Origin: Anaerolineae bacterium
Lineage (GTDB): Bacteria > Chloroflexota > Anaerolineae > J102
Direction of reading: 5' to 3'
Length of the DNA: 64,000 nucleotides
NCBI GenBank assembly: GCA_026991225.1
Contig: JALXCB010000046.1
Span: 5,147 to 69,146, forward strand
Of this stretch, positions 15,920 through 35,062 are shown piece after piece. Made by a program: the position numbers and the translations under genes. The notes beneath the pieces are model-generated. The model had not been told where the DNA came from, did not search any database, and worked only from the letters and a program-made list of their open reading frames with translations. The first letter of the stretch is position 1. Each line of letters starts with the position of its first letter.

Positions 15920-15974
15920 TCAGTCATCAGTCCAACGGTTTGTTCCTCACTGATTACTGCTTACTGATAACTGA
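15920..15974. repeat. Family E copy E4 (between hemE start and the rSAM stop)
   Basis: GAAAAGTAATCAGTCATCAGTCC...CACTGATTACTGCTTACTGATAACTGATTAC. Confidence 0.65.
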
Positions 15975-17129
15975 TTACTTCGCCTCGCGAAAGGCTTCAG
16001 GAACGTACACACACGCCGGGTCAGTTTCCAGATAATCGCCGGTGACGCCATAGGCCCGGCCGCGCTGGCCGCCGCACACGTCGCGGAATTCGCAGACGCC
16101 GCAGCGGCCCTTCAGTTTGTCGGGGTCCCGCAGGTCTTTGAATAAAGGATGGTTGCGATAGACCTCGACCACGTCATCTTTGCGGACGTTTCCGGCCACG
16201 ATGGGCAGGAAGCCGGAGGGTTCGATATTGCCGATGTGGGAGATGAAGAGGAAGCCATTGCCGTCGTTGACGCCTTTGGTGGGGCGGTTGAGGCCGTCCG
16301 CGTACTGGAAGCCCGCGCCCTGGAAGGCGATGGGCGCATCTTCGCCCAGTTCCTGGCGCTTGCGCTGGATGGCCACGCGGCGATACATGGGCGCGGCCGT
16401 GGCTTTGACGTCGAAAGGCGCTTCTTGGGCCAGGTCATACAGCCAATTGAAAATGCGCTCGTGCTCCTCGGGGGAGATCATCCAGTCGATCTGGCCCCGG
16501 CCCGTGGGCACCAGGAAGAAGACGGACCACTGCACCGCGCCCACCTCTTCGATGAAAGGCACCATCTCGGGCAGGATGTGGGCGTTGTGTTTGGCGACGG
16601 TGGTGTTCACCTGCACGCTCAGGCCCACGTCATGCGCCCGATGCAGGATGTCCATGGTGCGCTGCCAGGAGCCCGCCACCTTGCGGAAGTCGTCGTGGAT
16701 GGCGGGGCGGGGCGCATCCAGGCTAAGGGCGATGCGGCGGATGCCCGCGTCCCGGGCCTTTTGCAGCCGCTCTTTGGTGGGCAGAGCCGTGGCCGTGGGC
16801 GTCAGGGAGCAGCGCAGGCCCTTTTCAGTGGCGTAGGCGATGAGATCGAACAGGTCGCGGCGCATCATGGGGTCGCCGCCGGTGAAGATGAGGATGGGAT
16901 GGTTGCCGAACGCGGCCAGCCGATCGATGAGCTGAAAGCCTTCCTCGGTGGTGAGTTCCAGGGGATGGCGTTGGGGTTGGGCGTCGGCCCGGCAGTGGAC
17001 GCAGGCGTAGGCGCAGGCCCGGGTCACTTCCCAGGCGATGGTGAAGGGCGCTTTGTCGAAGTCCGCGTGCACCATGCGCCGGTCGTGGTAGGTGCGTTCG
17101 GCTGTGGCGGAGGGGGTGAGGTTGGACAT
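15975..17129 (-). CDS. Radical SAM/SPASM-domain protein, AhbD/NirJ-like, embedded in the heme operon
   Basis: 384 aa. CAYACVHC (CxxxCxxC). C-terminal Cys cluster ...KGRCGVCEFRDVCGG...DPACVY (SPASM-type auxiliary cluster motifs). Sits between hemB and hemE on the same strand. Confidence 0.7.
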   Translation of the reverse strand: MSNLTPSATAERTYHDRRMVHADFDKAPFTIAWEVTRACAYACVHCRADAQPQRHPLELTTEEGFQLIDRLAAFGNHPILIFTGGDPMMRRDLFDLIAYATEKGLRCSLTPTATALPTKERLQKARDAGIRRIALSLDAPRPAIHDDFRKVAGSWQRTMDILHRAHDVGLSVQVNTTVAKHNAHILPEMVPFIEEVGAVQWSVFFLVPTGRGQIDWMISPEEHERIFNWLYDLAQEAPFDVKATAAPMYRRVAIQRKRQELGEDAPIAFQGAGFQYADGLNRPTKGVNDGNGFLFISHIGNIEPSGFLPIVAGNVRKDDVVEVYRNHPLFKDLRDPDKLKGRCGVCEFRDVCGGQRGRAYGVTGDYLETDPACVYVPEAFREAK

Positions 17130-17263
17130 GGGAGGATTGGGATTGGGATTGGAAGATTCGTCTTTTGTGACACGGATGGAAGGAACACGGATGACATTCG
17201 ATTGATGCTATCATTAAGCCATTTTCCCATCCGTGTTTTCTTTTATCCGTGTTGCATGACCTT

Positions 17264-18334
17264 TTACAGCAATTTTGCGGCGTCCAGGGCGAAGTAGGTG
17301 AGGATGAGATCAGCGCCCGCGCGTTTGATGGCGAGCAGGCTCTCCAGCATGACGCGGGTCCCGTCGATCCAGCCGTTGGCGGCCGCGGCCTTGATCATGG
17401 CGTATTCGCCCGAGACCTGGTATGCGGCCAGGGGGAGCTTCACCTGCTCCTTGAGCTGCGCCAGGATGTCCAGGTAGAAGCTGGCGGGCTTGACCATGAT
17501 GATGTCCGCGCCTTCGGCGATGTCGATCTGCACCTCGCGCAGGGCCTCGCGGGCGTTGGCCGGGTCCATCTGATACTGGCTGCGGTCGCCGAATGCGGGC
17601 GGGCTTTCGGCCGCGTCGCGGAAGGGACCGTAGAGGGCGCTGGCGTACTTGGCCGCATAGCTCATGATGGGGATGTGTTCGAACCCGGCGTCATCCAGGC
17701 CCGAGCGGATAGCGCCCACCATACCGTCCATCATGCCGCTGGGCGCGACCATGTCCGCGCCGGCGCGAGCGTGGGTCACCGCGGCCCGGCTGATGTAATC
17801 CAGGGTGGGGTCGTTGAGGACGTAGCCCGTGGGGAGATTGGGGTTGTACGCGGGCTCGTCGGGCGTGTTGATGATCCCGCAATGCCCGTGATTGGTGTAT
17901 TCACACATGCAGATGTCGCTGACCACGACCAGGCCGGGCAGCGCCCGCTTCAAGGCCCGAATGGCTTCAGGGATGATGCCGTGAGGATCGTCATTTTCGC
18001 TGCCGTAGGGGTCCTTGTGTTCGGGAATGCCGAAGAGGATGACCGAGCGCACACCCAGACTCCACGCCCGCTCCGCTTCCTCGATCATCGTGTCGATGGA
18101 GAGCTGGAACTGGCCGGGCATGGAGGGAATGGGGTGACGAACGCCCTCGCCGTGGCGCACGAACAGGGGGTAGATGAAATCCTCGGGATGGAGATGGGTT
18201 TCCTGCACCATTTGCCGCAGCGCGGGGGAAAGGCGCAGGCGGCGAGGGCGGGCCAGGAGGGAGCGATGGCCGTTGCCGGGCCTCGATGACGTCACAGCTG
18301 TGGGCAGGATGGTGGGGAAAGAAGTTGCGCTCAT
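17264..18334 (-). CDS. hemB: Porphobilinogen synthase (delta-aminolevulinate dehydratase)
   Basis: Start taken at [10 protein letters not shown]... (ATG 18332-18334). ALAD family motifs. Overlaps the hemD stop region. Confidence 0.9.
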
Positions 18335-18372
18335 GATAAAAGTCCTTATGAGAGGAAACGAAAGATCGAAGA

Positions 18373-19158
18373 CTAAAGACTGACCGCCGGCTCTCCGAAC
18401 CAATCTCTCAATGCTGCGACCAGTCCTGGCGTGGTGTATTCTTCGGGCATGATGTCCACAGTCAGGCCCGCTTGCCGGGCTGCGTCCGCGGTGACGGGCC
18501 CGATGCAGGCGATGACCGCCCCGGCCAGGGCCTCTACGCCCAGGCCCGCCTCTCGCTCCAGGCGAATGAGGGTGTTGCGTACAGTGGAGGGACTGGTGAA
18601 TGTGATGGCGTCCACCAGTCCCGAGTGCAGAGCCGCGGGCAGATCCTCGCCCCCGCTCCCCAGCACGGTCTCATAGGCTGTGACCACGTCCACCCGCACA
18701 CCCCGGGCCCGCAGGCCGTCGGGCAGCACGTCCCGAGCCTGGGCGGCCCGCGGGAGCAGCACCCGCTGGCCCGCGGGAATGGGCAGCGCGGCCAGCAGAC
18801 TCTCCCCCACCGCTTTGGGCGGGATCAGGTCCACGTCCAGCCCCAGACGACGTTCGACGGCCCAGGCGGTGGCCGGGCCCACCGCGGCGATGTTCGGGCC
18901 GTGCAGCGCGTTTGGGGGCAATCCCAGCGCATCCAGGCGTCGGGCCACGGCCTCCACCGCATTGGCGCTGGTGAAGAGGAACCAGTCGTAGTCGCGGGCG
19001 TGGCGCAGGGCCACGTCCAGCGGGCCGGCGTCCGCGGGCGGTTGGATGGCGATGGCGGGATAAAGCAGGGTGCGGAAGCCTGCGGCCTCCAGCAGGGCCT
19101 TCAGTTCGTCCGCCTGGTGCGCGGTTCGGGTGATGACGATGGTGGGAGAAAAAGTCAT
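18373..19158 (-). CDS. hemD: Uroporphyrinogen-III synthase
   Basis: About 262 aa from the ATG at 19156-19158 ([28 protein letters not shown]...). HemD-like two-domain pattern. The listed longer ORF has an N-terminal extension without an SD. Confidence 0.7.
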
Positions 19159-19237
19159 GGTGAATGGTGAGAGATGATTTGACGGTCTCATGTCCATTAT
19201 GTTAGGATCAATGCAATCATTGTTCAGGAGATGCGCT

Positions 19238-19474
19238 ATGGCAGTTGAAGTCAAAACCGTCGAGATCCGAGACGCCAAAAAAGAGTTCCAGCGATGGCTC
19301 GCACTGGCGCAACAGGGCGTCGAGGTCATTGTCACCGATGAAGGCGAACCATTGGCTCGCATCTCAGCGGTTCGACCAAACGAGGGCCGCGTCGCTGGAC
19401 TGAACCGAGGTGAAATCAAAGCTGCCGAAGATTTCGATGAGCCGCTGCCAGAGTCCTATTGGATCGGGGAGTAA
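19238..19474 (+). CDS. Type II antitoxin (Phd/YefM/VapB-like)
   Basis: About 79 aa. MAVEVKTVEIRDAKKEFQRWLALAQQGVEVIVTDEGEPLARI... Stop TAA overlaps the ATG of the downstream PIN gene (GAGTAAATG). Confidence 0.6.
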   Translation: MAVEVKTVEIRDAKKEFQRWLALAQQGVEVIVTDEGEPLARISAVRPNEGRVAGLNRGEIKAAEDFDEPLPESYWIGE

Positions 19475-19876
19475 ATGCGCCTTCTGCTCGACACACACAT
19501 TTTTATCTGGTGGGCGGATGAGCCAGAACGTCTTGATGGACGGCTGCTCGACGCTCTGCTGAACGCTGAAAATGAATTGATTTTGAGTGTTGTCAGTCTT
19601 TGGGAAATGCAGATCAAAGCGCAATTGGGGAAATTAACGTTCCAAAGGCCGTTGAAGGAGCTCGTTCATTTACAACAAAGCGTCAACGGGTTGCAACTGC
19701 TTCCTGTAACGTCAAATCACGTGTTTTTGCTGGATGAACTGCCACTCATTCACAAGGATCCATTTGATCGGTTGATCATCGCTCAGGCGTTGGCGGAGAA
19801 TCTGATCCTCGTGAGTCACGATAGAGTATTCGAGGACTATCAGGTCCTCCTGTGGAAGCCCGATATGCAGGGATAA
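19475..19876 (+). CDS. vapC: PIN-domain ribonuclease toxin (VapC family)
   Basis: 133 aa. MRLLLDTHIFIWW...DPFDRLIIAQA...LVSHD carries PIN-domain acidic residues. Confidence 0.8.
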   Translation: MRLLLDTHIFIWWADEPERLDGRLLDALLNAENELILSVVSLWEMQIKAQLGKLTFQRPLKELVHLQQSVNGLQLLPVTSNHVFLLDELPLIHKDPFDRLIIAQALAENLILVSHDRVFEDYQVLLWKPDMQG

Positions 19877-19878
19877 AG

Positions 19879-20790
19879 TTAATCGGAAGTCGATAAGATT
19901 TCGACAGCGCCCTGGACAAGCGCCTCTTCCGCCAGGGCCCGGCCCAGCGCCAGGGGATCGTCGCCCGTCGCCTCCACGCGTAGCGTGCGGCGGCCATCGG
20001 GCGAGGCCACCAGCCCGGTGAGATGCAGGCCGGCATCGACAGGATGGGCGTATGCGGCCACGGGAATGGCGCAGCCGCCGCCCAATCCCGCCAGAAAGGC
20101 CCGCTCGGCCTGTGCGGCCGCCCGCGCGGCGGGATCTTCCACCGCGGCCAGCAGAGCCAGGGTGCGTTCATCGTCCGCCCGGCACTGCACGCCCAACACG
20201 CCCTGCCCCGGCGCAGGCAGCATGACGTCCAGGGGCAGATACTGCGTCACCGCGTCTTCCAGGCCCAACCGGGTGACCCCGGCCGCGGCCAGCACAATGG
20301 CGTCGTACTGGCCCTCCCGAGCCTTGCGGATGCGGGTGTCCACATTGCCGCGGATGGGTTTGACCGCCAGGTCGGGGCGATAGGCCAGCAGTTGGGCCTG
20401 ACGCCGGGGGCTGGAGGTGCCCACCACCGCGCCCGCGGGCAATGCATCCAGCGTGCGTCCCGCAGGGCAGATGAGCGCGTCTCGGGCGTCGGCCCGCGGG
20501 GGCGTGAGACCGATGGTGAGGCCGGGCGCATCCTCCACCGGCAGGTCTTTCAGGGAATGGACGGCCGCGTCCACCCGGCCCTCCCGCAAAGCCCGCTCCA
20601 GCTCTGCGGTGAAGAGCCCCTTGCCGCCGATGAGGGGCAGGGGCTTGTCCAGAATCCGGTCGCCTTGGGTGACGATGACCTGGATGTCGATGGTCAGGCC
20701 GGGATGCGCCGCCCGCAGCAGATCCGCGACGTAGTCGGTCTGCCAGCGGGCCAGTGCGGAGGGGCGGGTGGCGAAGGTGAGAGTGGGCAT
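19879..20790 (-). CDS. hemC: Hydroxymethylbilane synthase (porphobilinogen deaminase)
   Basis: Start at MPTLTFATRPSALARWQT... (ATG 20788-20790). ...GNVDTRIRK...QGVLGVQCRADDERTL... HemC motifs. Confidence 0.9.
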   Translation of the reverse strand: MPTLTFATRPSALARWQTDYVADLLRAAHPGLTIDIQVIVTQGDRILDKPLPLIGGKGLFTAELERALREGRVDAAVHSLKDLPVEDAPGLTIGLTPPRADARDALICPAGRTLDALPAGAVVGTSSPRRQAQLLAYRPDLAVKPIRGNVDTRIRKAREGQYDAIVLAAAGVTRLGLEDAVTQYLPLDVMLPAPGQGVLGVQCRADDERTLALLAAVEDPAARAAAQAERAFLAGLGGGCAIPVAAYAHPVDAGLHLTGLVASPDGRRTLRVEATGDDPLALGRALAEEALVQGAVEILSTSD

Positions 20791-20831
20791 GAGAGTGGAG
20801 ATTGGGATCAGGATAGGATGAGGGAACGTAG

Positions 20832-20972
20832 CCAGGTTGGCGCGGGAAGCCACTCCCGTAATGCGTGATGCGTAAGGAGCTCACGGATTACGCATTACGC
20901 ATCACGTCGGTTGCAGACTCGCCCACCGTGGGCTTCGAGTCATTTTTGCAAACCAACGCTATTTTCGGAGCA
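20832..20972 (-). repeat. Family A copy A2 (inverted orientation)
   Basis: Same modules in reverse complement. Its terminal CCGAAAATAGCGTTGG module supplies the hemA stop codon. Confidence 0.8.
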
Positions 20973-22224
20973 GATAGTCTTCCAGGGCGAAGAGGTCCTG
21001 AATGGCGCGGGCGTAGGGTTCGGCGTTGCCGCGGGCGGCCTGGGCCTTAAGCTGCAAGGTGGGTTCATGCAGGAGTTTGTTGACCAGCCGATGGGCGAGG
21101 CGGGTCATCTGATCGGCGACGATGGTATCATCGTGCGGAAGCTTGCGCAAGGCTTGTTCCAGCTCGGCCCGGGCCAGATCGTTGGCCTTGCGGCGCATGC
21201 CCACCAGCACCGGCAGCACTTGGCGGCTTCCCAGCCAGGCCATATAGCCATCCGCCGCCTCGGCGACCATGACTTCCACCTGAGGAATAGCGGCCTGCCG
21301 CTCCTCCAGGTTGTGCTGCACGATCTCCTGAATGTCATCCAGCACAAAAAGCTCCACGTGGGGAAGGCTCGCGACCGCGGGATCGATGGCGCGCGGCACG
21401 GAAAGATCCACCAGGATGAGAGGACGGGCCCGGCGGGGCGTCATGGCGGGCGTGATCAGGAAGCCGTCGCCCCCCGCGGCCACGATCACGGCGTCGGCCC
21501 AGCTCAGGCCATCTGGCAGTTGGCTGAGGGGGTGGGCAGTCGCCTGGACGCGGTCAGCCAGGGCCTGCGCCCGGGCCAGAGTGCGGTTGTAGATGCGGAT
21601 GCGGGCGTCGCTGAGCCCGGCCGCGTGCTTGGCCACCAGCGACCCCATCTCCCCCGCGCCCACGATGGCCAGACGCTTGCTCTGACTCAAGGCCGCATGA
21701 CCATCCACCCAGCGCATGACCACCGACCCGATGGAGACGGCGTTGCGGCTGATGGGGGTTTCGGTGCGGGCCCGCTTCCCCGTCTGAATGGCCGTGCGGA
21801 AGAGCTCGGCCAGTTGCGGGCCGATGGCGTGCACTTCCAGCCCCATCTCATAGGCATCCCGCACCTGGCCCAAAATCTGTGGTTCGCCCAGCACCATGGA
21901 ATCGAGCCCGCAGGCGACGCGGACCAGATGGTCGACGGCATCCCGCCCCTGCCAGACATACAGATAGCGTTGCAACTGGCTGGCGGAGAATCCCGTTCGG
22001 GCCTGGAAGAAGTCGCGGAGGAGGCCCATAGCCGCAGACGCGTCCGAGGCCGCCAGATACCACTCCGTACGATTGCAGGTGGAGAGGACGGCGGCCTCAT
22101 CGATGCTGGGGTGGGCCGTAAGTTGGATCAGGGCCTCTCGGGCAGCCTCGCCTTCGATGGCGAAGGCCTCGCGATGGGCCAGCGGCGTGGTGCGGTGGTT
22201 CAAGCCAAGGCAAAGGATCGTCAT
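20959..22224 (-). CDS. hemA: Glutamyl-tRNA reductase
   Basis: Start at MTILCLGLNHRTTPLAHREAFA... ...LSTCNRTEWY... catalytic Cys motif. NADPH-binding GAGEMG. Stop codon lies in the terminal module of an A-family repeat. Confidence 0.9.
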   Translation of the reverse strand: MTILCLGLNHRTTPLAHREAFAIEGEAAREALIQLTAHPSIDEAAVLSTCNRTEWYLAASDASAAMGLLRDFFQARTGFSASQLQRYLYVWQGRDAVDHLVRVACGLDSMVLGEPQILGQVRDAYEMGLEVHAIGPQLAELFRTAIQTGKRARTETPISRNAVSIGSVVMRWVDGHAALSQSKRLAIVGAGEMGSLVAKHAAGLSDARIRIYNRTLARAQALADRVQATAHPLSQLPDGLSWADAVIVAAGGDGFLITPAMTPRRARPLILVDLSVPRAIDPAVASLPHVELFVLDDIQEIVQHNLEERQAAIPQVEVMVAEAADGYMAWLGSRQVLPVLVGMRRKANDLARAELEQALRKLPHDDTIVADQMTRLAHRLVNKLLHEPTLQLKAQAARGNAEPYARAIQDLFALEDYLLRK

Positions 22225-22413
22225 AATCGACGCAGAAATCAGGAAGGGCGGTTCGGAATAGAAGTTAAGCAAACCTCATAATTTCTAAGTAAACCTTATC
22301 ACAGATTGCAATCGACGACCAAAAAATGTCTTCTCCAAAACCCCGAGAAAACAAAGAATGCGATGAATCCTACATTAAAAGTGGCTAAAAACCGAGGTGA
22401 AACACGCGCTCAA

Positions 22414-22464: not shown

Positions 22465-23349
22465 TCAAGAAGCACGGGACGCTTCTGCTGCCTCCTCCAA
22501 TCGCCAGTACAGGGCCTGGATGGCTTCCCAGACGGCCTCGCGCAGGGCTTCGATTTGTTCCATGTTGGGGGGCTGCGCGGGCGTGTCCTCATCCTGCCGC
22601 CCGACATACATGGCCCGGCTGACTTCGATCATGGCCCAGGGCTGCTGGCTCTCCATGCCATGCGCCTTCAGGTCCCAGCCGCCCCAATAGGGGCTGTTGA
22701 GCGCGACCGGGCCCGGCTCCGCCACCTCGCACAGCGAAGGGATGCGGTTCAGCCGCCGCCCCACTTCCTGCCCGAAGAATTGCAGATGGTCGGCGGGCAT
22801 GGTGGTGCGGGGGTAGCCGTTGCGCAGGTGGCCGCGGGCGTCGCCCAGGTTGGAGACGCAGCCGCGGGGGCGGATTTGTTGCGCCGGGTCGTATTTGCGG
22901 GGCCCGCGCGCGGCCATGCTGTGGGCGTCGATGACCAGCTTCACCTCCGGGTCGCGGGCGATGGCGGCCAGTTGTTCGTGCCAGGGATGCCAGTAGCGAT
23001 GCACCAGCTCCCGCTCTTCCGCCAAATCGGGATGCTGGCCGGGCTTGAAGATGGTCTGGCCGTAGCTGGTGACGTCTTTAATGACGCCATCGCCGATGCG
23101 CTTGAGCTGGCCGGGATCGTCGGGGCGATTGACGTCGATGAGGGCGCGGGCGTAGGGAAAGCGCACCCAGTGACGCACGCGGTCGCGGAAGTCGAAAATC
23201 AGGTCGGTGTAGACATCCGCTTCGTTGAAGATGTGATCTTCCCCGATGGCCAGCCGCCCCTCGAATTCGGGCGGGACAGCCAGCCCGGCGTGGGGAAGGA
23301 TGATGGCGATGGGGAGTTTGTCGTCTTGAATCGTCCGTGTTGCGCTCAT
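22465..23349 (-). CDS. N-formylglutamate amidohydrolase family protein (FGase)
   Basis: About 295 aa from the ATG at 23347-23349. ...PIAIILPHAGLAVPPEF...VIDAHSM... FGase-type motifs. Confidence 0.65.
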   Translation of the reverse strand: MSATRTIQDDKLPIAIILPHAGLAVPPEFEGRLAIGEDHIFNEADVYTDLIFDFRDRVRHWVRFPYARALIDVNRPDDPGQLKRIGDGVIKDVTSYGQTIFKPGQHPDLAEERELVHRYWHPWHEQLAAIARDPEVKLVIDAHSMAARGPRKYDPAQQIRPRGCVSNLGDARGHLRNGYPRTTMPADHLQFFGQEVGRRLNRIPSLCEVAEPGPVALNSPYWGGWDLKAHGMESQQPWAMIEVSRAMYVGRQDEDTPAQPPNMEQIEALREAVWEAIQALYWRLEEAAEASRAS

Positions 23350-23547
23350 GGTTCCATGCGACGCAAGGGGTGGGATATGAGAAAAGGTGCGACTTGACCG
23401 AAATGAGCTGGCATTCCGATAGGTCGCACCTGTTTTGTATACGAACAATCGAAGCCAATTGTTCCTCAACGTTCTTTTCAGGCGACACGGGCAGCAACCC
23501 GCCGTTACGGATGAAAACGCCCCGCGGCCGGGGCCGTGCAGGAAGCC

Positions 23548-23650
23548 AAGCACGTAATGCGTGATGCGTAACGATCTCACGTTTCACGTTTTCACGCATC
23601 ACGCCCGTTGCAGACTCGCCCAACCTTGGCTTTGCGAACCTTCAGCAACC
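23548..23650 (-). repeat. Family A copy A3 (inverted)
   Basis: GTAATGCGTGATGCGTAACGATCTCACG...CGCATCACGCCCGTTGCAGACTCGCCCAACCTTGG. Confidence 0.7.
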
Positions 23651-23666: not shown

Positions 23667-24854
23667 TCATAGCAGCTCGATGGCCATAGCCACGGCCTCG
23701 CCGCCGCCCAGACAGAGCGCGGCCACGCCCCGCCGCCCGCCCGTCTGGCGCAGGGCGTAGATCAGGGTGGTGAGGACGCGGGCGCCGCTGGCTCCCAAAG
23801 GATGCCCCAGGGCGATGGCCCCGCCGTGGATATTGACCTTCTCCGGGTCTAGCCCCAGTTCGATGATGTTTTGCAGGGATTGGGCGGCGAAGGCTTCGTT
23901 CAGCTCGAACAGATCGACGTCGGCCAGGCTCCAGCCGATGCGGTCCATGAGGCGGCGGATGGCGTGGGGGGGCGCGGTGAAGACTTTGAGGGGCTCGACC
24001 GCGGCGTGGGTGTAGCCGATGATGCGGGCCAGGGGCGTCAGGCCATGGGCTTGAGCGTACTCGGGATGGGCGATAACCGTGGCGGCTGCGCCGTCGCTGA
24101 TAGGCGGCGCATTGCCCGCGGTGACCGTGCCCCCTTCCTCGAACGCGGGCCGCAGTCGAGCCAGGGCCTCCAGGCTCGTGTCCGGGCGGATGGGCTCATC
24201 CCGATCCACGACCACCTCCTTGCGCTTCTGTTTCACCGTGATGGGAACCATCTCATCTTTGAACAGCCCCTCCTCGGTGGCCCGAACCGCGCGCATGTGG
24301 CTCTGATAGGCGAACTGGTCCTGCATCTCGCGAGTGATGTTGAAAGTGCGGGCGATCCATTCCGCCTCGTTGCCCATGTGCAAGCCGTTGAAAGGATCGA
24401 TGAGGCCGTCATGCACGGTAGCGTCCAGCACCTCGCCATTGCCCAGGCGGTAGCCGAAGCGGGCTTTGGGCAGCATGTAGGGCCCCATGCTCATGGCCTC
24501 CATTCCCCCTGCCACATAGAGCCGACCATCGCCGGCGCGGATGGCGCTGGCCGCGAACATGACCGCGCGCAGGCCCGAACCGCACACCTTGTTCAGGGTG
24601 ACCGCGCCCACGCTCTCGGGCAGGCCGCCGAAGACGGCCGCCTGGCGGGCCGGGGCCTGGCCCGTGCCCGCGGGGATGACCTGCCCCATGAACACTTCCT
24701 CGACCTCGGCGGGATCAATGCCCGACCGTTCCACCACCGCCCGGATGACGTGCGCGCCCAGTTTGGGCGCAGGGATGTTGCTGAGCGCACCGCCCAACCG
24801 GCCGCCGGGCGTGCGGGCTGCGGCAAGGATGACAGGATAAATCGGTTGGTTCAT
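23667..24854 (-). CDS. Acetyl-CoA C-acetyltransferase (thiolase II)
   Basis: Start at [18 protein letters not shown]... Thiolase active-site regions (...NKVCGSGL..., ...[12 protein letters not shown]..., C-terminal ...[13 protein letters not shown]). Confidence 0.85.
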
Positions 24855-24867
24855 GACAAGGCTCCTG

Positions 24868-25065
24868 TTCCGAAAATAGCGTTGCATTGGTTTACAAAAA
24901 TAACTCGAAGCCCCCGTTGGGCGGGTCTGCTACAGACGTGATGCGTAATCCGTAATCCGTGAGGTCATTACGCATCACCCATTACGCATTACGTAGCTGG
25001 CTTCCCGCGCCGCCCTGGCCGCGGGGCGTTTTCATCGGTATCGGCAAACGTCGCTCGCGGCGCAT
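24868..25065 (+). repeat. Family A copy A4 (fills the whole thiolase-to-pdp spacer)
   Basis: All three modules present. Confidence 0.8.
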
Positions 25066-25070
25066 GAAAT

Positions 25071-26378
25071 TCATTCAATCGTCTTTTTAATCAACGCGGG
25101 CGGCGTCACGGGTTCATCGCTCCAGGCGTAGGCGGTCAGAAGCTCTTCGGCCGCGGCCCGGGCCTCGGCTTCGGTGCGGGCGTGGATGTCGCAGAGGACG
25201 TCGCCCGCATCCACCCGGTCGCCGATCTTCGCCCGCAGGACGACGCCCACGCGATGGTCGATGAGATCGCCCTTCTTCTCGCGGCCGCCGCCCAGCTTCA
25301 CCGTGACTTCGCCGAATGTGCGAGCGCGCACCTGGCTGAGATAGCCCGATTGAGGGGACGTCAGGGGCAGGACCACGGGCGCGGCGGCCAGGATGGCGTC
25401 GGGATCGTCGGCCACGCGAGGATCGCCGCCCTGATAGGCCACGAACATTTGGAATTTGCGCAACGCCCGGCCGCTGGCCAGGGCCTCTTCCACGCGGGAT
25501 CGCCCCTCCTCCACGCTGTCCACTCGCCCGCACATCTGCAATAGATGCGCGGCCTCGGTGAGGATGAGTTCGGTGAAATCGGCCGGGCCTTCGCCCTTGA
25601 GGGTGGCGATCGCCTCCTTCACCTCCAGCGCATTGCCCACGGCCAGGCCCAAAGGCTGATTCATGTCGGTGACCCGGGCCGCGACCTTGCGCCCGGACAG
25701 CTTGCCGATGGCGACCATAAGCCGGGCCAGCTCCACCGCGTCCTCCAGTATCTCCATGAACGCGCCATTGCCGGTTTTTACGTCAAGCAAAATCACGTCC
25801 GCGCCCGCGGCCAGCTTCTTCGACATGATGGAGGAGGCGATGAGGGCCATGCTGGGCACGGTCGCGGTCACATCGCGCAGTGCGTAAAGCTTCTTGTCCG
25901 CGGGAGCCAGTTCCGCGGTCTGCCCGGCCACGACGATGCCGATGTCGGCCAGTTGCTTCTTGAATTCCTCAATGGTCAGCTCCGCCCGCCAGCCGGGGAT
26001 GGATTCCAGCTTGTCCAGGGTGCCGCCCGAGAAGCCCAGTCCCCGGCCCGACATCTTGCCGATGGGCTGGCCCGCGGCCGCGACGATGGGCGCCAGGGCC
26101 AGGGTCACCTTGTCGCCCACGCCGCCGGTGGAATGCTTGTCCGCCACGGGCCTGACCACGTCGCTCAGGTCGAGGGTCTCGCCCGAATGGGCCATGCTCA
26201 GGGTGAGGTCGGTGACCTCGCGGTCGGTCATACCTCGTAACAGCACGGCCATGGCCCAGGCCGCGGCCTGGTAGTCGGGAATCTCGCCCCGCGTGTACCC
26301 CTGGATGAAGAAATCGATCTCCTCGGTGGTCAATTCCAGACCGTCTCGTTTTTTGGCGATGATATCGACAGCGCGCAT
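25071..26378 (-). CDS. pdp: Pyrimidine-nucleoside (thymidine) phosphorylase
   Basis: About 435 aa from the ATG at 26376-26378. ...[20 protein letters not shown]... and ...[13 protein letters not shown]... glycosyltransferase-family-3 motifs. Confidence 0.85.
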
Positions 26379-26404
26379 GGGAACTCCTGCTATGAAAATA
26401 GATT

Positions 26405-26562
26405 TGGAGGACGCAGATAACGCAGATTGAAACGGATGAACGCAGATGATAAAGAAAAAATCTGCGAAAATCATCTGCGAAAATCTGCATTGCGAAGCAT
26501 CCGTGTCATCTGCGCTCTCATTTTCATTGGTATTGGCGCGGGCTTGCCCGCCATCGGACTGC
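26405..26562. repeat. Family D copy D3
   Basis: GACGCAGATAACGCAGATTGAAACGGATGAACGCAGATGATAAAGAAAAAATCTGCGAAAATCATCTGCGAAAATCTGCATTGCGAAGCATCCGTGTCATCTGCGC. Confidence 0.75.
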
Positions 26563-26574
26563 TATAAAAATTGA

Positions 26575-26740
26575 TTTGGCAGACCGGGAAACCGGTAGAC
26601 CGGTAGACCAGTAAACCGGGTGGGGGAGCGAATCGGCCCGGTTTCCCTGGTTTCCTGGTTTACCGGGTTACGGGACTACGGGGCTACGCACCCCGCCATT
26701 TTCGTCCGTGTCGGCGAGCTTGCGCTTGGGCCGCCTGCGT
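26575..26740. repeat. Family B copy B2
   Basis: GACCGGGAAACCGGTAGACCGGTAGACCAGTAAACCGGG...CCCGGTTTCCCTGGTTTCCTGGTTTACCGGG + ACGCACCCCGCCATTTTCGTCC tail. Confidence 0.8.
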
Positions 26741-26900
26741 TGAAAATAACGTTGCGTTGGTTTGCAAAAAAGACTTGAAGCCCACGTTGGGCGAGCCTGC
26801 CACGGGCGTGATTCGTGAAGACGTGAAACGTGAGGGCTTTACGCATCACGCATCACGGTTCACGAATTCGGCTCCCCGCGCCAACGTGGCCGTTAACGTT
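26741..26900 (+). repeat. Family A copy A5
   Basis: GTTGAAAATAACGTTGCGTTGG...CCCACGTTGGGCGAGCCTGCCACGGGCGTGATTCGTGAAGACGTGAAACGTGAGG... Confidence 0.75.
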
Positions 26901-27027
26901 TTATTGCGTATTTGTCGCTCAAGTATACTGCAACCCGAGAGAAATCATAAAAACCGCGCCGCGCTTCAAGCGCAGACTTCGATTTGTAGATTCCCTCACA
27001 TTTGCATACAATAGGCGTCAATTCTCG

Positions 27028-27200
27028 TAACTACTAAGGTGTCGCCGCCACTTTTTGCCACGAAGACACGAAGAAAAGCGAAGGCGCGACGTATTTTTCT
27101 TTATTTTTCCTTCGTGTCTTCGAAAAACTTCGAGCCTTCGTGGCAAGACGTTTTCAGCGCCGAATCAGGCTGCCTGAGCAGTTACGCCGCCACCTTCCTC
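27028..27200 (+). repeat. Family C element, copy C1
   Basis: GTAACTACTAAGGTGTCGCCGCCACTTTTTGCCACGAAGACACGAAGAAAAGCGAAGGCGCGACGTATTTTTCTTTATTTTTCCTTCGTGTCTTCGAAAAACTTCGAGCCTTCGTGGC... is an imperfect long palindrome. Confidence 0.8.
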
Positions 27201-27224
27201 GCTCACAATCTTATAAGGTGACCC

Positions 27225-28769
27225 ATGCAGGATCATCTCGACAAACTCCGACAGCTCAAAGAAGAAGCGATGCAGGGGGGAGGAGAAGCCCGCATCGCCA
27301 GGCAGCACGCCGCGGGCAAGCTCACCGCGCGGGAGCGCATCCAGTTGCTGGTGGACGCGGGGAGTTTTCAGGAGTTGGGGATGTTCGTCAAGCACCAGAT
27401 CGGCGATTTCGGCATGGATCAGAAGCGCTATCCGGGAGATGGCGTGGTGACGGGCTTCGGGACCATCGACGGGCGTCAGGCCGCGGTCTACGCCCAGGAT
27501 TTCACCGTGCTGGGCGGGACGTTTTCGGAGATGCACGCCCGCAAGATCGTGGCCCTGCAGGACCTGGCTCTGGAAGCGGGCGTCCCCATCATCGGGTTGA
27601 TGGATTCGGGCGGGGCCCGCATTCAGGAGGGGATTCGCGGGCTGGCGGGCTATGGCGACATGTTCACACGCAACGTGCTCTCCTCGGGCGTCATCCCCCA
27701 GCTCTCGGTGATGATGGGCCCCTCGGCCGGGGGCTCCGTCTACGCACCGGCCCTGACCGACTTCGTGATCATGGTCAAAGACACCAGCTACATGTTCCTG
27801 ACCGGGCCCGACGTGGTGCAGGCTGTGACGGGCGAGACGGTCACCCCCGAGGAGCTGGGCGGGGCCATGGTGCACAATGTGCGCAGCGGGGTGGCTCATC
27901 TTTTGGCCGAAGATGAAGCGCACGCGTTGCGGATGGTGCGCCTGATCCTCAGCTATCTGCCCCAAAACAACACCGAGGACCCGCCCCACGCCCCCACCAA
28001 CGACCCGCCCGACCGTCAGGAGGAATCCCTGGCGCGCATCGTGCCCGCGGCTGAGGACCAGCCCTACGACGTGAAGGAGGTCATCCAGGCCGTGGTCGAT
28101 CTGGGCAGCTTCTTCGAGGTGCAGCCCTACTTCGCCCGTAACGCCGTGGTGGGCTTCGCCCGCATGGACGGGCATGTGGTCGGCATCGTCGCCAACCAGC
28201 CCTCCTTCCTGGCGGGCGTGCTAGACATCGACGCCAGCGATAAAATCGCACACTTCGTGCGGGTGTGCGACGCCTTCAACATCCCCATCCTCACCTTCGT
28301 GGACACGCCCGGATTCCTGCCCGGCGTCAACCAGGAGCACTACGGCGTCATCCGCCACGGGGCCAAGATCATCTACGCGTATGTCGAGGCCACCGTGCCC
28401 AAGATTTCCGTCATTCTACGCAAGGCCATGGGCGGCGCTTACATCGCCATGAGTTCCCGACGCATGCGCAGCGACCTGGCCCTGGCCTGGCCCACAGCCC
28501 AAGTCGCGGTCATGGGCGCGGAAGGCGCGGTGCGCATCCTCCATCGCAAGGACCTGGCGAAAGCGGAAGACCCGGCCCAACTGGAGGCCGAATTCGTGCA
28601 GGCGTATCGGGACGCCTTTTTCAACCCTTACATCGCCGCGGAGCTAGGCTTCATCGATGACGTCATCGACCCGCGCGAGACCCGGCCCAAGTTGATCAAG
28701 GCCCTGGCCTTTCTGCGCACGAAGGTGCAGCAAAACCCGCCCAAAAAGCATGGGTTGATGCCGGTATGA
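27225..28769 (+). CDS. Acyl-CoA carboxyltransferase subunit (methylmalonyl-CoA decarboxylase alpha / propionyl-CoA carboxylase beta-like)
   Basis: 514 aa. Carboxyltransferase N and C domains (...DGRQAAVYAQDFTVLGGTF..., ...PILTFVDTPGFLPG...). First gene of the decarboxylase operon. Confidence 0.85.
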   Translation: MQDHLDKLRQLKEEAMQGGGEARIARQHAAGKLTARERIQLLVDAGSFQELGMFVKHQIGDFGMDQKRYPGDGVVTGFGTIDGRQAAVYAQDFTVLGGTFSEMHARKIVALQDLALEAGVPIIGLMDSGGARIQEGIRGLAGYGDMFTRNVLSSGVIPQLSVMMGPSAGGSVYAPALTDFVIMVKDTSYMFLTGPDVVQAVTGETVTPEELGGAMVHNVRSGVAHLLAEDEAHALRMVRLILSYLPQNNTEDPPHAPTNDPPDRQEESLARIVPAAEDQPYDVKEVIQAVVDLGSFFEVQPYFARNAVVGFARMDGHVVGIVANQPSFLAGVLDIDASDKIAHFVRVCDAFNIPILTFVDTPGFLPGVNQEHYGVIRHGAKIIYAYVEATVPKISVILRKAMGGAYIAMSSRRMRSDLALAWPTAQVAVMGAEGAVRILHRKDLAKAEDPAQLEAEFVQAYRDAFFNPYIAAELGFIDDVIDPRETRPKLIKALAFLRTKVQQNPPKKHGLMPV

Positions 28770-29119
28770 TCGAAAATCTCCAGTTTGGCGCCCTGCTGAT
28801 GGTCGTGGGCATGACCATGGTGTTCATCATTCTGGCCATGCTTTGGGGGCTCATCGCCCTGTTCCAGCAGATCGACCGTCGCATGTTCGCCCGGGAGGAG
28901 GCCCGGAGGGCCCCCAAAACCGAGGAGCCGTCCCCCGAGCTGCTGGCGGCCATCGTCGTGGCCGTGCACCGCTATCGTCTGGAGGCCGCTCAGCCCGAGA
29001 GGGCGGGCCCGCGCGTGCCCAAACGCCTGAAGCCCTCCCAGGCGCGTTGGGTGGCCGTAGGACGGGCGTATCAGCTGCGGCAAAACCTCCCGCCGCGAGG
29101 GACAAGTGGCAGGAAGTGA
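28766..29119 (+). CDS. OadG-like small membrane subunit of Na+-translocating decarboxylase
   Basis: ATGA overlap with the upstream gene. MIENLQFGALLMVVGMTMVFIILAMLWGLIALF... single TM helix typical of OadG/MmdD. Confidence 0.6.
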   Translation: MIENLQFGALLMVVGMTMVFIILAMLWGLIALFQQIDRRMFAREEARRAPKTEEPSPELLAAIVVAVHRYRLEAAQPERAGPRVPKRLKPSQARWVAVGRAYQLRQNLPPRGTSGRK

Positions 29120-29171
29120 TCCATGATCTGTCCAACCGCGAATGCTTCCTCATCGAGATGGATGAAAATGG

Positions 29172-29262
29172 CAACCGGTAGACCGGAAAACCAGTAGACC
29201 GGGAAACCATGCGTAGACCGGCTATGCCAGGTCTACTGGTCTCCTGGTTTCCTGGGTTATCA
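29172..29262. repeat. Family B copy B3 (inside the decarboxylase operon gap)
   Basis: CCGGTAGACCGGAAAACCAGTAGACCGGGAAACC...GGTCTACTGGTCTCCTGGTTTCCTGGG. Confidence 0.75.
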
Positions 29263-29280
29263 AGAGCGTCTCCCTAAACT

Positions 29281-29335
29281 AAACGCATTTGGAAATCAGG
29301 TGTTTTCGGCCTCGGCCACCCGGAGCTGAAGCTCC
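29281..29335. repeat. Family F element, copy F1
   Basis: AAACGCATTTGGAAATCAGGTGTTTTCGGCCTCGGCCACCCGGAGCTGA. Confidence 0.65.
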
Positions 29336-29555
29336 GGGCTACGAAACGACGCCGGGTGAACCCGGCTTCCTGCGGCGAGCGACCTGCGCCATAGCCCCAT
29401 TGATGGGGCGTCGTTTTTAGCCCGCAGGTGAACCTGCGGGCGGCGGCGCGGCCAGAGAATCGCCTTTCACTGATGATCCAATGCGAACCAAAAGCCTTGG
29501 TTTCAATTTGCTTTCAGTTTAATTGCTGACTTTGACTCTTTCACCGTGAGCCCTT

Positions 29556-30050
29556 ATGAAAAGCTATACCATCACCATCGGCGACAAGACCCACATCATC
29601 GGCCTGCAAGAGCTGGACAATCCCGACCGCTTCCGCGTGCTGGCGGGCGGCCAGGTGTATGAGATCAAGGTTGTGGCCGTGGAGGAGAGCGACGCGGAGA
29701 TCCCCAGCATCGAGGTGATCCAGGCGGCGAAAGATCAGCCCGCGCTGGCCCACAAAGCGCCCGAACTCCTGCCCAAGGCCCCCTCCTCCAGGCCCCCCGA
29801 CCTGCCCGAACCGGAAGCTGCGGAGGAGCTCCCCGCCGAGGTGCGGGCGCCCATGCCCGGCGTCATCCTGGAGGTGAGCGTGACGCCCGGAACCCCGGTG
29901 CAGCGGGGCGATCAGCTCTTCGTGCTGGAAGCCATGAAGATGAAAAACCCCATTCGCTCCCCGCGGGATGGCGTGGTGGCGGAGGTGTTCGTACACGAGG
30001 GCCAGAATGTGAACTACGACGACCTGCTGCTGCGCTATCGGGAGGGCTGA
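29556..30050 (+). CDS. Biotin carboxyl carrier subunit (biotin/lipoyl attachment domain)
   Basis: 164 aa with a Pro/Ala linker and ...EAMKMKNPI... biotinyl-lysine motif. Confidence 0.8.
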   Translation: MKSYTITIGDKTHIIGLQELDNPDRFRVLAGGQVYEIKVVAVEESDAEIPSIEVIQAAKDQPALAHKAPELLPKAPSSRPPDLPEPEAAEELPAEVRAPMPGVILEVSVTPGTPVQRGDQLFVLEAMKMKNPIRSPRDGVVAEVFVHEGQNVNYDDLLLRYREG

Positions 30051-30051: not shown

Positions 30052-31167
30052 ATGAACATCCTGGCGACCATCTTCGGAGGATTGCTCAGCATGACCTGGG
30101 GCCAGGCATTGATGATCGGGGTGGGGCTGCTGCTCATCTATCTGGCCATCGTCAAGGAATATGAACCGGTGCTGTTGCTGCCCATCGGCGCGGGCGCGGT
30201 GCTGGCCAACCTGCCCCTCTCGCCCGTGGTCGGCGAGGACGGCATCCTCAGCATCCTCTATCAGGCGGGCGTGGCCAACGAGCTCTTTCCCCTGCTCATC
30301 TTCGTGGGCATCGGGGCCATGACCGACTTCGGGCCGCTGCTGGAGCGGCCGCACATGCTGCTGTTGGGCGCGGCGGGCCAGTTCGGCATCTTCGGCACAC
30401 TGTTTCTGGCCCTGCTGCTCGGGTTCAATATCAATGAAGCCGCGTCCATCGGCATCATCGGCGCCATCGATGGGCCTACGTCCATCTATGTCAGCAATCT
30501 GCTGGCTCCTCACTTGCTGGGCCCCATCGCCGTGGTCGCTTACAGCTATATGTCCCTGGTGCCCATCATCCAGCCGCCCATCATGCGGGCGCTGATTAGC
30601 AAGAAGGAGCGGCGCATCCGCATGCCTTATAGCGAGAACCCGGTCAGCCGCCGCACCCGCATCCTCTTCCCCATCCTGGTAACCATCGTCGTGGGCATCC
30701 TCGTGCCCATGGCCATCCCCCTCATCGGCATGTTGATGCTGGGAAATCTGATGAAGGAGTCGGGCGTGGTACAGCGGCTGGTGGGCGCATCCGAGAACGA
30801 GATCGCCAATGTGGTCACCCTGTTTCTGGGGCTGGCCATTGGCGCCACCATGCAGGCGCAATACTTCCTGAAGCTGGACACCCTGCTCATCCTGGTGCTG
30901 GGCGTGTTCGCCTTCGGGCTGGACACTGCTGCGGGGTTGCTATTCGCCAAATTCCTGAACTGGGTCACCCGCGGCCCGCTGAATCCCCTCATCGGCGCGG
31001 CGGGCATCAGCGCCTTCCCCATGGCCGCGCGGGTGGTGCAGAAGGTGGCGCAGGAGGAGGACTTCGAGAATTTCCTGCTGATGCACGCGATGGGTGCCAA
31101 CACCGCGGGCCAGATCGCCAGCGTAGTGGCGGGCGGCGTGGTGCTGGCCTTGTTCGCCGGGCGATAG
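30052..31167 (+). CDS. Na+-transporting decarboxylase beta subunit (OadB/MmdB/GcdB family)
   Basis: 371 aa polytopic membrane protein, immediately after the biotin carrier gene. Confidence 0.85.
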   Translation: MNILATIFGGLLSMTWGQALMIGVGLLLIYLAIVKEYEPVLLLPIGAGAVLANLPLSPVVGEDGILSILYQAGVANELFPLLIFVGIGAMTDFGPLLERPHMLLLGAAGQFGIFGTLFLALLLGFNINEAASIGIIGAIDGPTSIYVSNLLAPHLLGPIAVVAYSYMSLVPIIQPPIMRALISKKERRIRMPYSENPVSRRTRILFPILVTIVVGILVPMAIPLIGMLMLGNLMKESGVVQRLVGASENEIANVVTLFLGLAIGATMQAQYFLKLDTLLILVLGVFAFGLDTAAGLLFAKFLNWVTRGPLNPLIGAAGISAFPMAARVVQKVAQEEDFENFLLMHAMGANTAGQIASVVAGGVVLALFAGR

Positions 31168-32954: not shown

Positions 32955-33062
32955 GAACCTGGTAGACCTGTAGGCCGGTAGCCCGCAAACCAGGAAACCA
33001 AGCGAAGACCCCTCAGATTACCGATCTACCGGTTTCCTGGTTCAACGGCTTCCTGGGTTATC
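32955..33062. repeat. Family B copy B4 (abuts the tsaC stop codon)
   Basis: CCTGGTAGACCTGTAGGCCGGTAGCCCGCAAACCAGGAAACC...CTACCGGTTTCCTGGTTCAACGGCTTCCTGGG. Confidence 0.75.
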
Positions 33063-34962: not shown

Positions 34963-35062
34963 TCGAAAAAAGAACGCAGATGACGCAGATTTGAACGGAT
35001 TGATGTGGATAAAAATCCGTGATTGTCCGCGATGCGAAGCATCTGCGGCATCAGCGTTCCCC
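34963..35062. repeat. Family D copy D4
   Basis: AACGCAGATGACGCAGATTTGAACGGATTGATGTGGATAAAAATCCGTGATTGTCCGCGATGCGAAGCATCTGCGGCATC. Confidence 0.7.

Follow-up and report, generated by a model that had tools for sequence, protein, structure and literature searches.

Repeat modules with IS110-family ends, probably a stack of miniature elements, in the pdp–decarboxylase spacer of an Anaerolineae bacterium

The closest precedent for the repeats described here appears to be ISPpu9 of Pseudomonas putida KT2440, together with the small units known as MITEPpu9. ISPpu9, an insertion sequence (IS) of the IS110 family, has a 43-bp left box with a GC palindrome, a 16-bp right box and AG at both boundaries (Pares-Guillen et al., NAR 2025, PMC12288879). 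MITEPpu9 (from MITE, miniature inverted-repeat transposable element) carries near-copies of both ISPpu9 boxes, forms minicircles, and is found alone, beside the IS and as tandem duplicates; it amounts to eight copies of one unit carrying the small RNA (sRNA) gene ssr9, and ISPpu9 itself targets repetitive extragenic palindromic (REP) sequences (PMC12288879). In IS110-group elements, the donor and target guides of the bridge RNA have the same sequence as the top strand to the left of the core (Durrant et al. 2024, PMC11208160). Within the literature searched, with subscription-only works outside the search, MITEPpu9 was the only case that linked an IS110 element, a bridge RNA and a MITE. Here, we analyzed a 64-kb stretch of the Anaerolineae contig JALXCB010000046.1 (hereafter, the window), and in it the 846-bp spacer at 26379-27224, which separates pdp, the gene for pyrimidine-nucleoside phosphorylase, from a divergently oriented decarboxylase operon.

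We consider it likely that this spacer is a divergent pdp/decarboxylase control region colonized by four miniature, non-autonomous elements. Three of these, D3, B2, and A5, would be head-to-tail derivatives of an IS110-family element (with its DEDD recombinase and bridge RNA) forming a stacking array, and the fourth, C1, would be a separate MITE. The three stacked units would keep the 43-nt left end of the IS, its right end of about 15 nt, and the CAG/CTG core on both sides, the recombinase gene and the bridge-RNA region having been swapped for a long hairpin with arms composed of tandem 7-8-nt words.

Repeat units of the spacer and autonomous IS110-family copies with the same ends

A sequence-only reading of this DNA had described the spacer as a composite of D3, B2, A5, a single-copy stretch, and C1, an order borne out by BLASTN copies in the window and by hairpin folds. 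When searched against the window, the spacer resolved into four repeat modules with further copies and one single-copy block. D3 (26386-26557) recurs at 2438-2528(-), 13020-13085(-), 34971-35000, and 13301-13341(-); B2 (26558-26733) at 784-912, 29170-29259, 62663-62711(-), and 32962-33041(-); and A5 (26734-26915) at 24872-25021, 20831-20959(-), 23553-23632(-), 44251-44378, and 13130-13241. Copies of C1 (27027-27224) were found at 43035-43152(-) (97% identity over 118 nt), 48457-48573 (88%), and 58526-58581. No second copy of the block between A5 and C1 (26916-27026) was detected in the window. Each module folds as a long imperfect hairpin: minimum-free-energy (MFE) z-scores against dinucleotide shuffles were -4.1 for D3, -2.4 for B2, -2.6 for A5, and -4.9 for C1, compared with -0.9 for the single-copy block. 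Hairpins with arms of tandem 7-9-nt words numbered 11 in the window and none in each of five shuffles. Similarly, a tail motif shared among modules occurred five times at three or fewer mismatches, with 0 expected, and a profile built from this tail identified nine tails in the window. Inspection of tandem repeats and of the sequence itself further revealed that most intergenic spacers carry periodic hairpins, built on many different words. At Rfam gathering thresholds, a glmS ribozyme at 62165-62341(-) was the sole match in the whole window, and in E-value mode, positions 24800-29600 returned sub-threshold, chance-level matches only, leaving the modules without a family.

D3, B2, and A5 follow a common plan. 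A unit opens with CTG and a 15-nt head (CTATGAAAATAG), continues through a variable hairpin core with arms of tandem 7-8-nt words, and closes with a 43-nt tail, composed of CATTTTCATCGGTATCGGCG, a small GC hairpin, and GTCGGA or GTCGCC, followed by CTG. The three lie head to tail as units of 172-190 nt in which neighbors share one CTG: the heads (CTGCTATGAAAATAG and variants) begin at 26387, 26559, and 26735, a spacing of 172 and 176 nt, and the tails (CATTTTCATCGGTATCGGCG) at 26519 and 26697. D3 has the head CTG-CTATGAAAATAG, a hairpin core on the word ACGCAGAT, and a tail ending in GGA-CTG. B2, whose first CTG is also the end of D3, is built on the core word CCGGTAGA / GGTTTCC, and its tail ends in GCC-CTG. 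A5 has the head CTG-CGTTGAAAATAAC, an outer stem formed by GCCCACGTTGGGCGAG/CGCGCCAACGTGGC, and an inner stem on the word CGTGAAA; its tail has degenerated, the small GC hairpin being absent. Since this tail, the counterpart of an IS left end (see below), has decayed, A5 is probably the oldest of the three. Read in the sense of pdp, the order is A5, B2, D3, and then the pdp ribosome-binding site. The sequence-only reading had counted four different repeat families in the spacer. Because D, B, and A have both termini and the 172/176-nt register in common, they instead form one superfamily, from which C alone differs.

A scan of public metagenomes for the tail yielded 120 loci, mostly from three related Joint Genome Institute (JGI) samples. 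In total, 207 tails and 98 heads were counted in them, and a head and its tail lie 60-180 nt apart. Similarity between copies ends past the last CTG, and in arrays the head of the neighbor begins at that same CTG. The units are 110-230 nt long, with CTG...CTG termini and ATGAAAAT/ATTTTCAT sub-terminal repeats. They are too small for a recombinase gene, and they occur in many copies at unrelated loci, as the nine tails of the window and the 207 of the fetched loci attest. Across the fetched loci, the small GC hairpin of the tail shows compensating changes (CGGGC/GCCCG, CTGGC/GCCAG, GAGC/GCTC, and GCGC/GCGC). In addition to types A, B, and D, the recurring cores are built on CACGAAG, CTCACGCA, CACGGAT, TNACTGA, and GGATTAG. 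Two other delimitations were tried and rejected: a tail-plus-head “linker” as the mobile unit, given the many tails with no head following, and the head as a native pdp leader or a long target duplication, since this head is also found at unrelated loci and is the same as the right end of the IS described next.

The shared tail pointed out in the sequence-only reading is real and corresponds to the 43-nt left end of an IS110-family IS; the modular recombination between families that had been suggested along with it is not required. At one of the related loci (denoted here by L numbers), L104, an open reading frame (ORF) at 288-1610 encodes a 440-aa protein with the domains DEDD_Tnp_IS110 (PF01548, 1.8e-29) and Transposase_20 (PF02371, 2.1e-24). 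This ORF sits exactly between a head and a tail, on the opposite strand and without a hairpin core. L104 originates from the same JGI sample as L102, a contig 99% identical to window positions 1-1596. Both domains are also present in the homologues P0001-P0008. Five further IS copies, on other contigs and in different contexts, encode recombinases 79-93% identical to the L104 protein. We compared the six copies (L104, L202, L204, L205, L206, and L207), all of which come from related metagenomes and metagenome-assembled genomes (MAGs) outside the window.

The six copies have the same ends. On the left, a flank ending in ...ATTTTCNNNNCAG is followed by TCCGACGGCGGGCGAGCCCGCGCCGATACCGATGAAAATG or by a variant starting with GC, which is the tail in reverse complement; on the right, the gene is followed after about 10 nt by CTATTTTC-N4-CAG, which is the head in reverse complement. 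The left end thus reads CAG, then, past the boundary, TCCGACGG..GCCGATACCGATGAAAATG, and the right end reads CTATTTTCNNNNCAG up to the boundary. The correspondence with the small units is close: the D3 tail is identical to the L104 left end at 38 of 43 positions, and the B2 tail, which represents the second, GC-starting type of left end, agrees at 30 of 41 positions with the L204-type left end. The heads of the units, in turn, read CTATTTTC[N4]CAG in reverse complement and match the IS right end. The IS has neither terminal inverted repeats nor a target duplication. The same short core stands at both of its boundaries, namely CAG in the copies for which both flanks are available, and tandem neighbors hold one CAG/CTG jointly.

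Between the 43-nt end box and the ATG of the recombinase gene, the IS copies have a leader of 234-239 nt, strongly conserved in all six and containing an internal TATAAT. This leader is nearly invariant save for a few short blocks, two of which are guide-like. The 7-mer of block 1 equals the copy’s own right-end 7-mer in six of six copies, even though four different 7-mers are involved: AAAGCAG (L104 and L205), AGAACAG (L202), GGAACAG (L204), and TAAACAG (L206 and L207). The 7-mer of block 2 equals the 7 nt flanking the left end, exactly so in L104, L204, L205, and L207, at six of seven positions in L206, and at five of seven in L202; it is followed by TC or GC, in step with the first two bases of the left end. 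Both blocks behave in this respect as described for the donor and target guides of bridge RNAs (PMC11208160). Since the sequences matched by the guide-like blocks end at the outer CAG, the recombination sites would be at CAG, with head and tail inside the IS. It is therefore unlikely that the IS landed within a pre-existing repeat.

The alternative most directly concerned here is that the hairpin units are an independent, REP-like class of repeats merely targeted by the IS110 element, head and tail being the two halves of its target. IS110-family elements are indeed known to insert into repetitive palindromes (PMC11208160, PMC12288879), and all IS copies found have head-like or tail-like sequence beside them. 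We nonetheless regard this explanation as unlikely. The sequences matched by the guide-like blocks do not end at the inner junctions (head/IS or IS/tail), none of the six copies has hairpin-core remnants beside the IS, and the recombinase stop codon is only about 10 nt from the head. Moreover, none of 77 head-tail pairs is a core-less unit of head plus tail (0/77), and the IS of L207 occupies a unique-looking site, CATTTTTGAAACAG/TCCGAATGG (the slash marking the boundary), which resembles a right end-left end (RE-LE) junction and not a split unit.

Arrays that include the IS itself point to how stacks of this kind may arise. L202 (1-2823; GCA_027044015.1, JALUDO010000584.1) contains two full IS copies in direct tandem through a single CAG, and in L204, L205, and L206, an IS is in tandem with a small unit, whose core is of the CTTCGTG-word type or of type B, A, or D. 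In a census of small-unit heads, the five commonest right-end 7-mers were ATAGCAG (31), AAAGCAG (27), GGAACAG (18), TAAACAG (9), and AGAACAG (8). Four of these five equal donor guides of the IS copies found, and the remaining one, ATAGCAG, equals the target guide of the L202 IS. We propose that insertion occurs preferentially at the terminal motif of an element already in place (...ATTTTCNNNNCAG up to the boundary, in the transposase sense). The target guide of an autonomous copy would match the resident right-end motif (NNNNCAG after ATTTTC), and new copies, whether IS or MITE, would land beside the existing end, the incoming left end meeting the resident right end at LT-CAG/RT (LT and RT, left and right target). 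A target guide that matches the end of a sibling would lead to head-to-tail arrays with one common core. The IS recombinase would mobilize the small units in trans.

Orthologous loci and alternative explanations

The “unique AT-rich” block between A5 and C1 is not filler. It holds both stretches of the spacer that are conserved in relatives, and these are probably divergent promoters. On the pdp side is the motif GCAGTATACTTGAG, a candidate -10 region (Table 1). The sequence cGTATACTt occurs upstream of pdp in all 13 related loci inspected, 50-95 nt from the pdp ATG in most relatives, about 190-210 nt from it in L005 and L016, which have inserts of their own, and about 550 nt from it in the window. 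Given this distance of the -10-like motif from the start codon, insertion of the three units probably took place within the pdp 5′ leader. A gap of 8 nt separates the start codon itself from the outer CTG of D3, with the AGGAG ribosome-binding site overlapping this junction. On the operon side lies a conserved block with TTGTAG-17 nt-TACAAT as candidate promoter; BLAST aligned this block, and no other part of the spacer, to the orthologous spacer of L016 (84% over 44 nt). The pdp leader would thus contain D3, B2, and A5, which would be read there antisense to their head-to-tail orientation. C1, situated downstream of the candidate promoter and ahead of the carboxyltransferase start codon, would belong to the operon leader; the modules would accompany the genes in their transcripts. 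A terminator-like GC hairpin with a T run lies between the two conserved stretches, at 26954-26975(-), and is absent from L016.

Comparison of orthologous loci had been suggested along with the sequence-only reading. Among the relatives, only L016 retains the divergent gene order, and its spacer, 365 bp long versus 846 bp here, lacks all four modules. The presence of units also differs between species in the spacer between the thiolase gene and pdp, which in the window is filled by a further unit, A4, and measures 183 nt, compared with 7-45 nt in the relatives L003, L006, L007, and L019. The outer end of the A4 head adjoins the thiolase ribosome-binding site. In the L016 spacer (3437-3801), we observed a head-like motif (CCTGTGTTGAGAATAAC) and a different hairpin beside pdp; this pdp-side position was either colonized independently or holds a much-diverged older unit.

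These comparisons bear on the possibility that the modules are not mobile DNA at all and instead represent cis-regulatory RNA that evolved locally in the pdp and decarboxylase leaders, for example as attenuators, RNase sites, or stabilizers. The modules do lie between conserved promoter-like blocks and start codons, they are significantly structured, and their head ends overlap ribosome-binding sites and stop codons of neighboring genes. However, the same modules with the same termini stand beside unrelated genes in the window and in more than 100 other contigs, they are absent from the orthologous leaders, and they belong to no Rfam family, all of which makes a purely regulatory origin very unlikely. 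Secondary exaptation of modules after insertion may have taken place.

C1 belongs to a MITE family unrelated to the D, B, and A units. Its inverted ends read GTAACT[A/G]CTAAGG ... CAGTTAC, and its core word is CACGAAG, a word that is found in C cores and also in some cores of IS110-type units. The C family comprises about 40 copies with 13-bp inverted ends, GTAACTGCTAAGG ... CCTTAGCAGTTAC (in C1 itself, GTAACTACTAAGG ... GAGCAGTTAC), and most copies have perfect or near-perfect 8-bp target duplications, as do those at 42999-43152 (TGTAAGAT) and 48457-48609 (GAATGGAT) of the window. C-type elements were also seen inside or abutting IS110-type units, at L137 7401-7533(-), L090 5141, and L099 9831.

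A different route of mobility has also to be weighed. The units are intergenic, form hairpins, cluster in mosaics, and occur in both orientations relative to genes, and a small GC hairpin about 10 nt from one end recalls the right ends of IS200/IS605 elements. They might on these grounds be repeats resembling REPs and bacterial interspersed mosaic elements (BIMEs), mobilized on single-stranded hairpins by a REP-associated tyrosine transposase (RAYT) or an IS200/IS605-type Y1 (HUH) transposase, with the mosaics as BIME-like clusters. We hold this to be highly improbable, as the units measure 110-230 nt compared with 20-40 nt, carry no GTAG/CGTC tag, and have both termini accounted for by the IS110-family element. 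TBLASTN searches for Y1 genes in the fetched loci with IS608 TnpA and an E. coli RAYT, a weak test, returned nothing at E<0.1. Finally, there is next to no chance that D3-B2-A5 is one larger composite moving as a block, contiguous, equally oriented, and in register though its parts are, since D, B, and A types each occur alone elsewhere in the window and tandem neighbors in related contigs come in widely varying order, the 48 adjacencies comprising about 30 different ordered pairs (e.g., A>D, A>B, D>B, B>A, A>E, A>G, and H>A). This variable order argues that the D-B-A array is a mosaic of independent units, and the condition named along with the sequence-only reading as refuting a mosaic, one identical composite at many unrelated loci, did not overturn it.

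Several observations weigh against the explanation we favor, namely colonization by IS110-derived units and a MITE. Pfam and a survey of genes found no transposase gene, of the IS110 family or otherwise, in the 64-kb window; autonomous copies are known from other contigs and related MAGs, and their residence in one genome together with the units is putative. The window copies of A, B, and D are only 73-88% identical among themselves by BLASTN, so that these units may be old and now immobile. An all-against-all megablast of related loci revealed no pair of filled and empty alleles of an IS110-type unit within one species, the sole indel being an unrelated MITE in another organism (L121/L129). 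With respect to the guides, the stretch of left end conserved in the small units (43 nt) exceeds the few bases that known guides read; the L104 leader RNA had no Rfam match in E-value mode; and its predicted fold of -44 kcal/mol is accompanied by no stem covariation, the six copies being too similar. Within the spacer, a scan for the sigma-70 consensus called no promoter, TTGTAG/TACAAT matching 8 of 12 hexamer positions, and C1 has no target duplication (CAATTCTC versus GCCGCCAC).

Other mosaics, hairpin cores, and annotated features

Two similar mosaics had been pointed out in the window, at 12991-13307 and 29120-29555, and both are real. The first, which we delimit as 12991-13341, is a nested insertion of an A unit into a D unit on the opposite strand. 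A1 (13086-13295, +) splits the D-type unit, is flanked by CTG on both sides, and sits at a CTG in the D-unit loop; the tail profile matches at 13012-13039(-) and 13247-13286(+). The earlier suggestion of adjacent or nested insertions at preferred targets agrees with this case and with the D3-B2-A5 array, and can be made more specific, in that the target would be the terminal motif of the resident element.

The second mosaic, an inverted and degenerate B-type unit followed by F1, lies inside the decarboxylase operon between the genes for the gamma subunit and the biotin carrier, in a spacer of 436 bp, compared with 83 bp in L016. F1 is a 250-bp MITE with inverted ends of about 21 bp (TAAACTAAACGCATTTTGAAA...) and several GC hairpins closed by TGAA loops. 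Its copies in related contigs (L143, L199, L116, L137, L181, L097, L190, where two are in tandem, and L126) are in many cases 93-97% identical, and F1 therefore looks recently active. In L143 and L190, F1 directly adjoins the head of an IS110-type unit. Its match to the Rfam family Acido-Lenti-1 is below threshold (28.6 bits, threshold 37).

The hairpin cores themselves seem to change by whole words. Between the window and L102 (99% identity over 1.6 kb), we observed three substitutions and one indel, consisting of two extra GGATTA words in one hairpin arm (window 583-599), which would represent slippage at the level of strains. Likewise, in 54 aligned A-type cores, both arms vary by whole 7-nt words, and the arms thus behave like microsatellites. 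RNAalifold recovered only five pairs from these 54 cores, whole-word 7-nt indels shifting the register of the arms. We considered and rejected the possibility that core words are target arrays for a bridge RNA: intergenic NNNNCAG 7-mers numbered 82, compared with 33-92 for controls with other trinucleotides. Direct repeats of the heptamer (NNACTGA)n lie directly upstream of start codons at window 927-960 and in L082, L107, L146, and L181, and the same word also builds hairpins between genes of the haem operon (14768-14845 and 15912-15981).

The window has a G+C content of 62%, and its nearest genomes are Anaerolineae/Caldilineales MAGs, whose pdp proteins are 85-93% identical. The same pdp protein with an identical spacer is found on the metagenome scaffold ENA ERZ23491050. 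The operon starting at 27225 (+) is of the methylmalonyl/oxaloacetate-decarboxylase type according to Pfam, and the remaining genes of the window have ordinary housekeeping functions, with a haem-synthesis operon among them. Within this operon (13308-22272; hemA, hemC, hemD, hemB, a radical-SAM gene, hemE, and a protoporphyrinogen-oxidase-like gene), several internal spacers carry a periodic hairpin or repeat unit. One of these, A2, lies between hemA and hemC, and the hemA stop codon (TAG) falls within its head, just as the thiolase stop codon (TGA, 23667-23669) falls within the head of A3. A7 (61967-62060), an A-type periodic hairpin with a head and no tail, is situated between the glmS ribozyme and the glmS coding region (60081-~61950, -), and therefore places a repeat unit inside a ribozyme-controlled leader.

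Table 1 Features of the pdp–decarboxylase region and related mosaics (window coordinates).
Feature	Position	Strand	Basis
Unit A4, IS110-type, in the thiolase-pdp spacer	24865-25066	+	BLAST copies, A-type alignment, tail profile
pdp (pyrimidine-nucleoside phosphorylase)	25071-26378	-	Pfam Glycos_trans_3N, Glycos_transf_3, PYNP_C
Unit D3, IS110-type, MITE-like	26387-26561	+	Tail profile E=8e-10; D copies; MFE z=-4.1
Unit B2, IS110-type, MITE-like	26559-26737	+	Head register; tail profile E=3e-6; B copies
Unit A5, IS110-type, MITE-like	26735-26923	+	Alignment with 8, then 53, further A-type copies; BLAST
Conserved motif, candidate pdp -10 region	26918-26931	-	Conservation
Conserved block, candidate decarboxylase-operon promoter	26975-27023	+	L016 alignment
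Unit C1, separate MITE family	27027-27185	+	97% over 118 nt to 43035-43152(-)
Carboxyltransferase subunit, first gene of the Na+-decarboxylase-type operon	27225-28769	+	Pfam Carboxyl_trans
Gamma subunit, decarboxylase operon	28766-29119	+	Pfam OAD_gamma
B/F1 mosaic: degenerate inverted B-type unit (29126-29262), then F1 (29274-29523)	29126-29523		
Biotin carrier, decarboxylase operon	29556-30050	+	Pfam Biotin_lipoyl
Beta subunit, decarboxylase operon	30052-31167	+	Pfam OAD_beta
Nested mosaic: D-type unit (-), arms 13296-13341 and 12991-13085, split by A1	12991-13341		D3 BLAST to both halves

The units also affect gene calls. A mechanical ORF list runs several genes into repeat units (25071-26474, 22465-23580, and 23667-24887), and the true starts are likely to be 26378 for pdp, 23349 for a formylglutamate-amidohydrolase-like gene, and 24854 for the thiolase gene; the latter two match the gene calls of the metagenome contig L001. 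In these MAGs, long repeat-filled spacers would accordingly be annotated as stacked insertions in 5′ leaders and operons, rather than as outsized regulatory regions, and ORFs called across them would be expected to have over-extended starts, such as those of 25071-26474 and 22465-23580. In two stretches of lower G+C content, 12450-12990 and 19625-19878, there are short ORFs that a GC3-based gene picker did not choose and that may be small accessory genes.

Comparison with known systems

A broader proposal, to which we give even odds, extends beyond this spacer. In a clade of Chloroflexota (Caldilineales/Anaerolineae-like), a large radiation of non-autonomous elements would be moved by bridge-RNA recombinases whose guides are aimed at the terminal 7-mers of siblings. 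Such elements would build arrays in leaders and operon spacers, using their own progeny as safe landing pads, and their cores would evolve by slippage, being perhaps required for the excision of very small circles or tolerated as harmless in mRNA. Bridge-RNA recombinases are under development as programmable genome-editing tools, and little is known of their natural cargoes besides themselves. The lineage described here would offer many natural cargoes that need only the 43-nt and 15-nt ends, as well as several recombinase and guide variants whose targets can be read from arrays. Targeting of sibling ends would, in addition, be a simple rule for the origin of mosaic repeat clusters.

Among known systems, IS621 and the IS110 group (Durrant et al., Nature 2024, PMC11208160) resemble the autonomous copies in the DEDD and Tnp domains, the long non-coding left end, and a pair of short variable blocks, each followed by the core, that repeat the sequence of the left target flank and of the donor end, respectively. 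Further likenesses are the lack of inverted ends and the sequence-specific insertion into repeats. The core, however, is CAG here, as judged from sequence, compared with the CT dinucleotide demonstrated for IS621, and the leader matches no Rfam or covariance model. No abundant non-autonomous derivatives of IS621 were found in the literature searched.

REP sequences and BIMEs, which are associated with RAYTs in Enterobacteria and Pseudomonas, are likewise intergenic palindromic mosaics located in operon spacers and in 3′ and 5′ untranslated regions, and they too serve as landing sites for IS110 elements. Unlike REPs, which are 20-40 nt long, the units described here measure 110-230 nt, carry no GTAG/CGTC tag, and have ends in common with the IS itself. 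Classical bacterial MITEs, such as Correia, Nezha, and Chunjie, have inverted ends and target duplications. C1 and F1 resemble these in their size of 150-250 bp, their terminal inverted repeats, their many near-identical copies, and their location in intergenic and intra-operon spacers, and the C family also in its target duplication of fixed length (8 bp). They differ from classical MITEs in that the cores of the C family are periodic hairpins like those of some IS110-type units, down to the word CACGAAG.

The heptamer arrays find a parallel in the TAACTGA repeats upstream of start codons in Beggiatoaceae and cyanobacteria, a report that does not mention Chloroflexota (MacGregor 2015, PMC4679880). 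Here, too, (NNACTGA)n arrays occur, some of them directly upstream of start codons. In contrast to the TAACTGA repeats, the same word builds both hairpin arms and cores of mobile units, and many other words are used besides. We found no description of such repeats in Chloroflexota in the literature searched.

The comparison with ISPpu9 and MITEPpu9 remains the most instructive. The architecture of the end boxes, the AG at the boundary (here, CAG), the small non-coding unit, and the occurrence in tandem are all common to both systems. Whereas MITEPpu9 is a single unit with an sRNA gene, the units observed here fall into at least eight core types, with hundreds of copies in related contigs, and the cores are periodic hairpins and not a known sRNA. 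ISPpu9 minicircles were demonstrated experimentally, and the units here are known from sequence alone. Unlike that of ISPpu9, the target here resembles the element’s own right end or junction, and the host belongs to the Chloroflexota. Judged against MITEPpu9, what would be new in this system is thus its scale, its cargo, its target, and its host.

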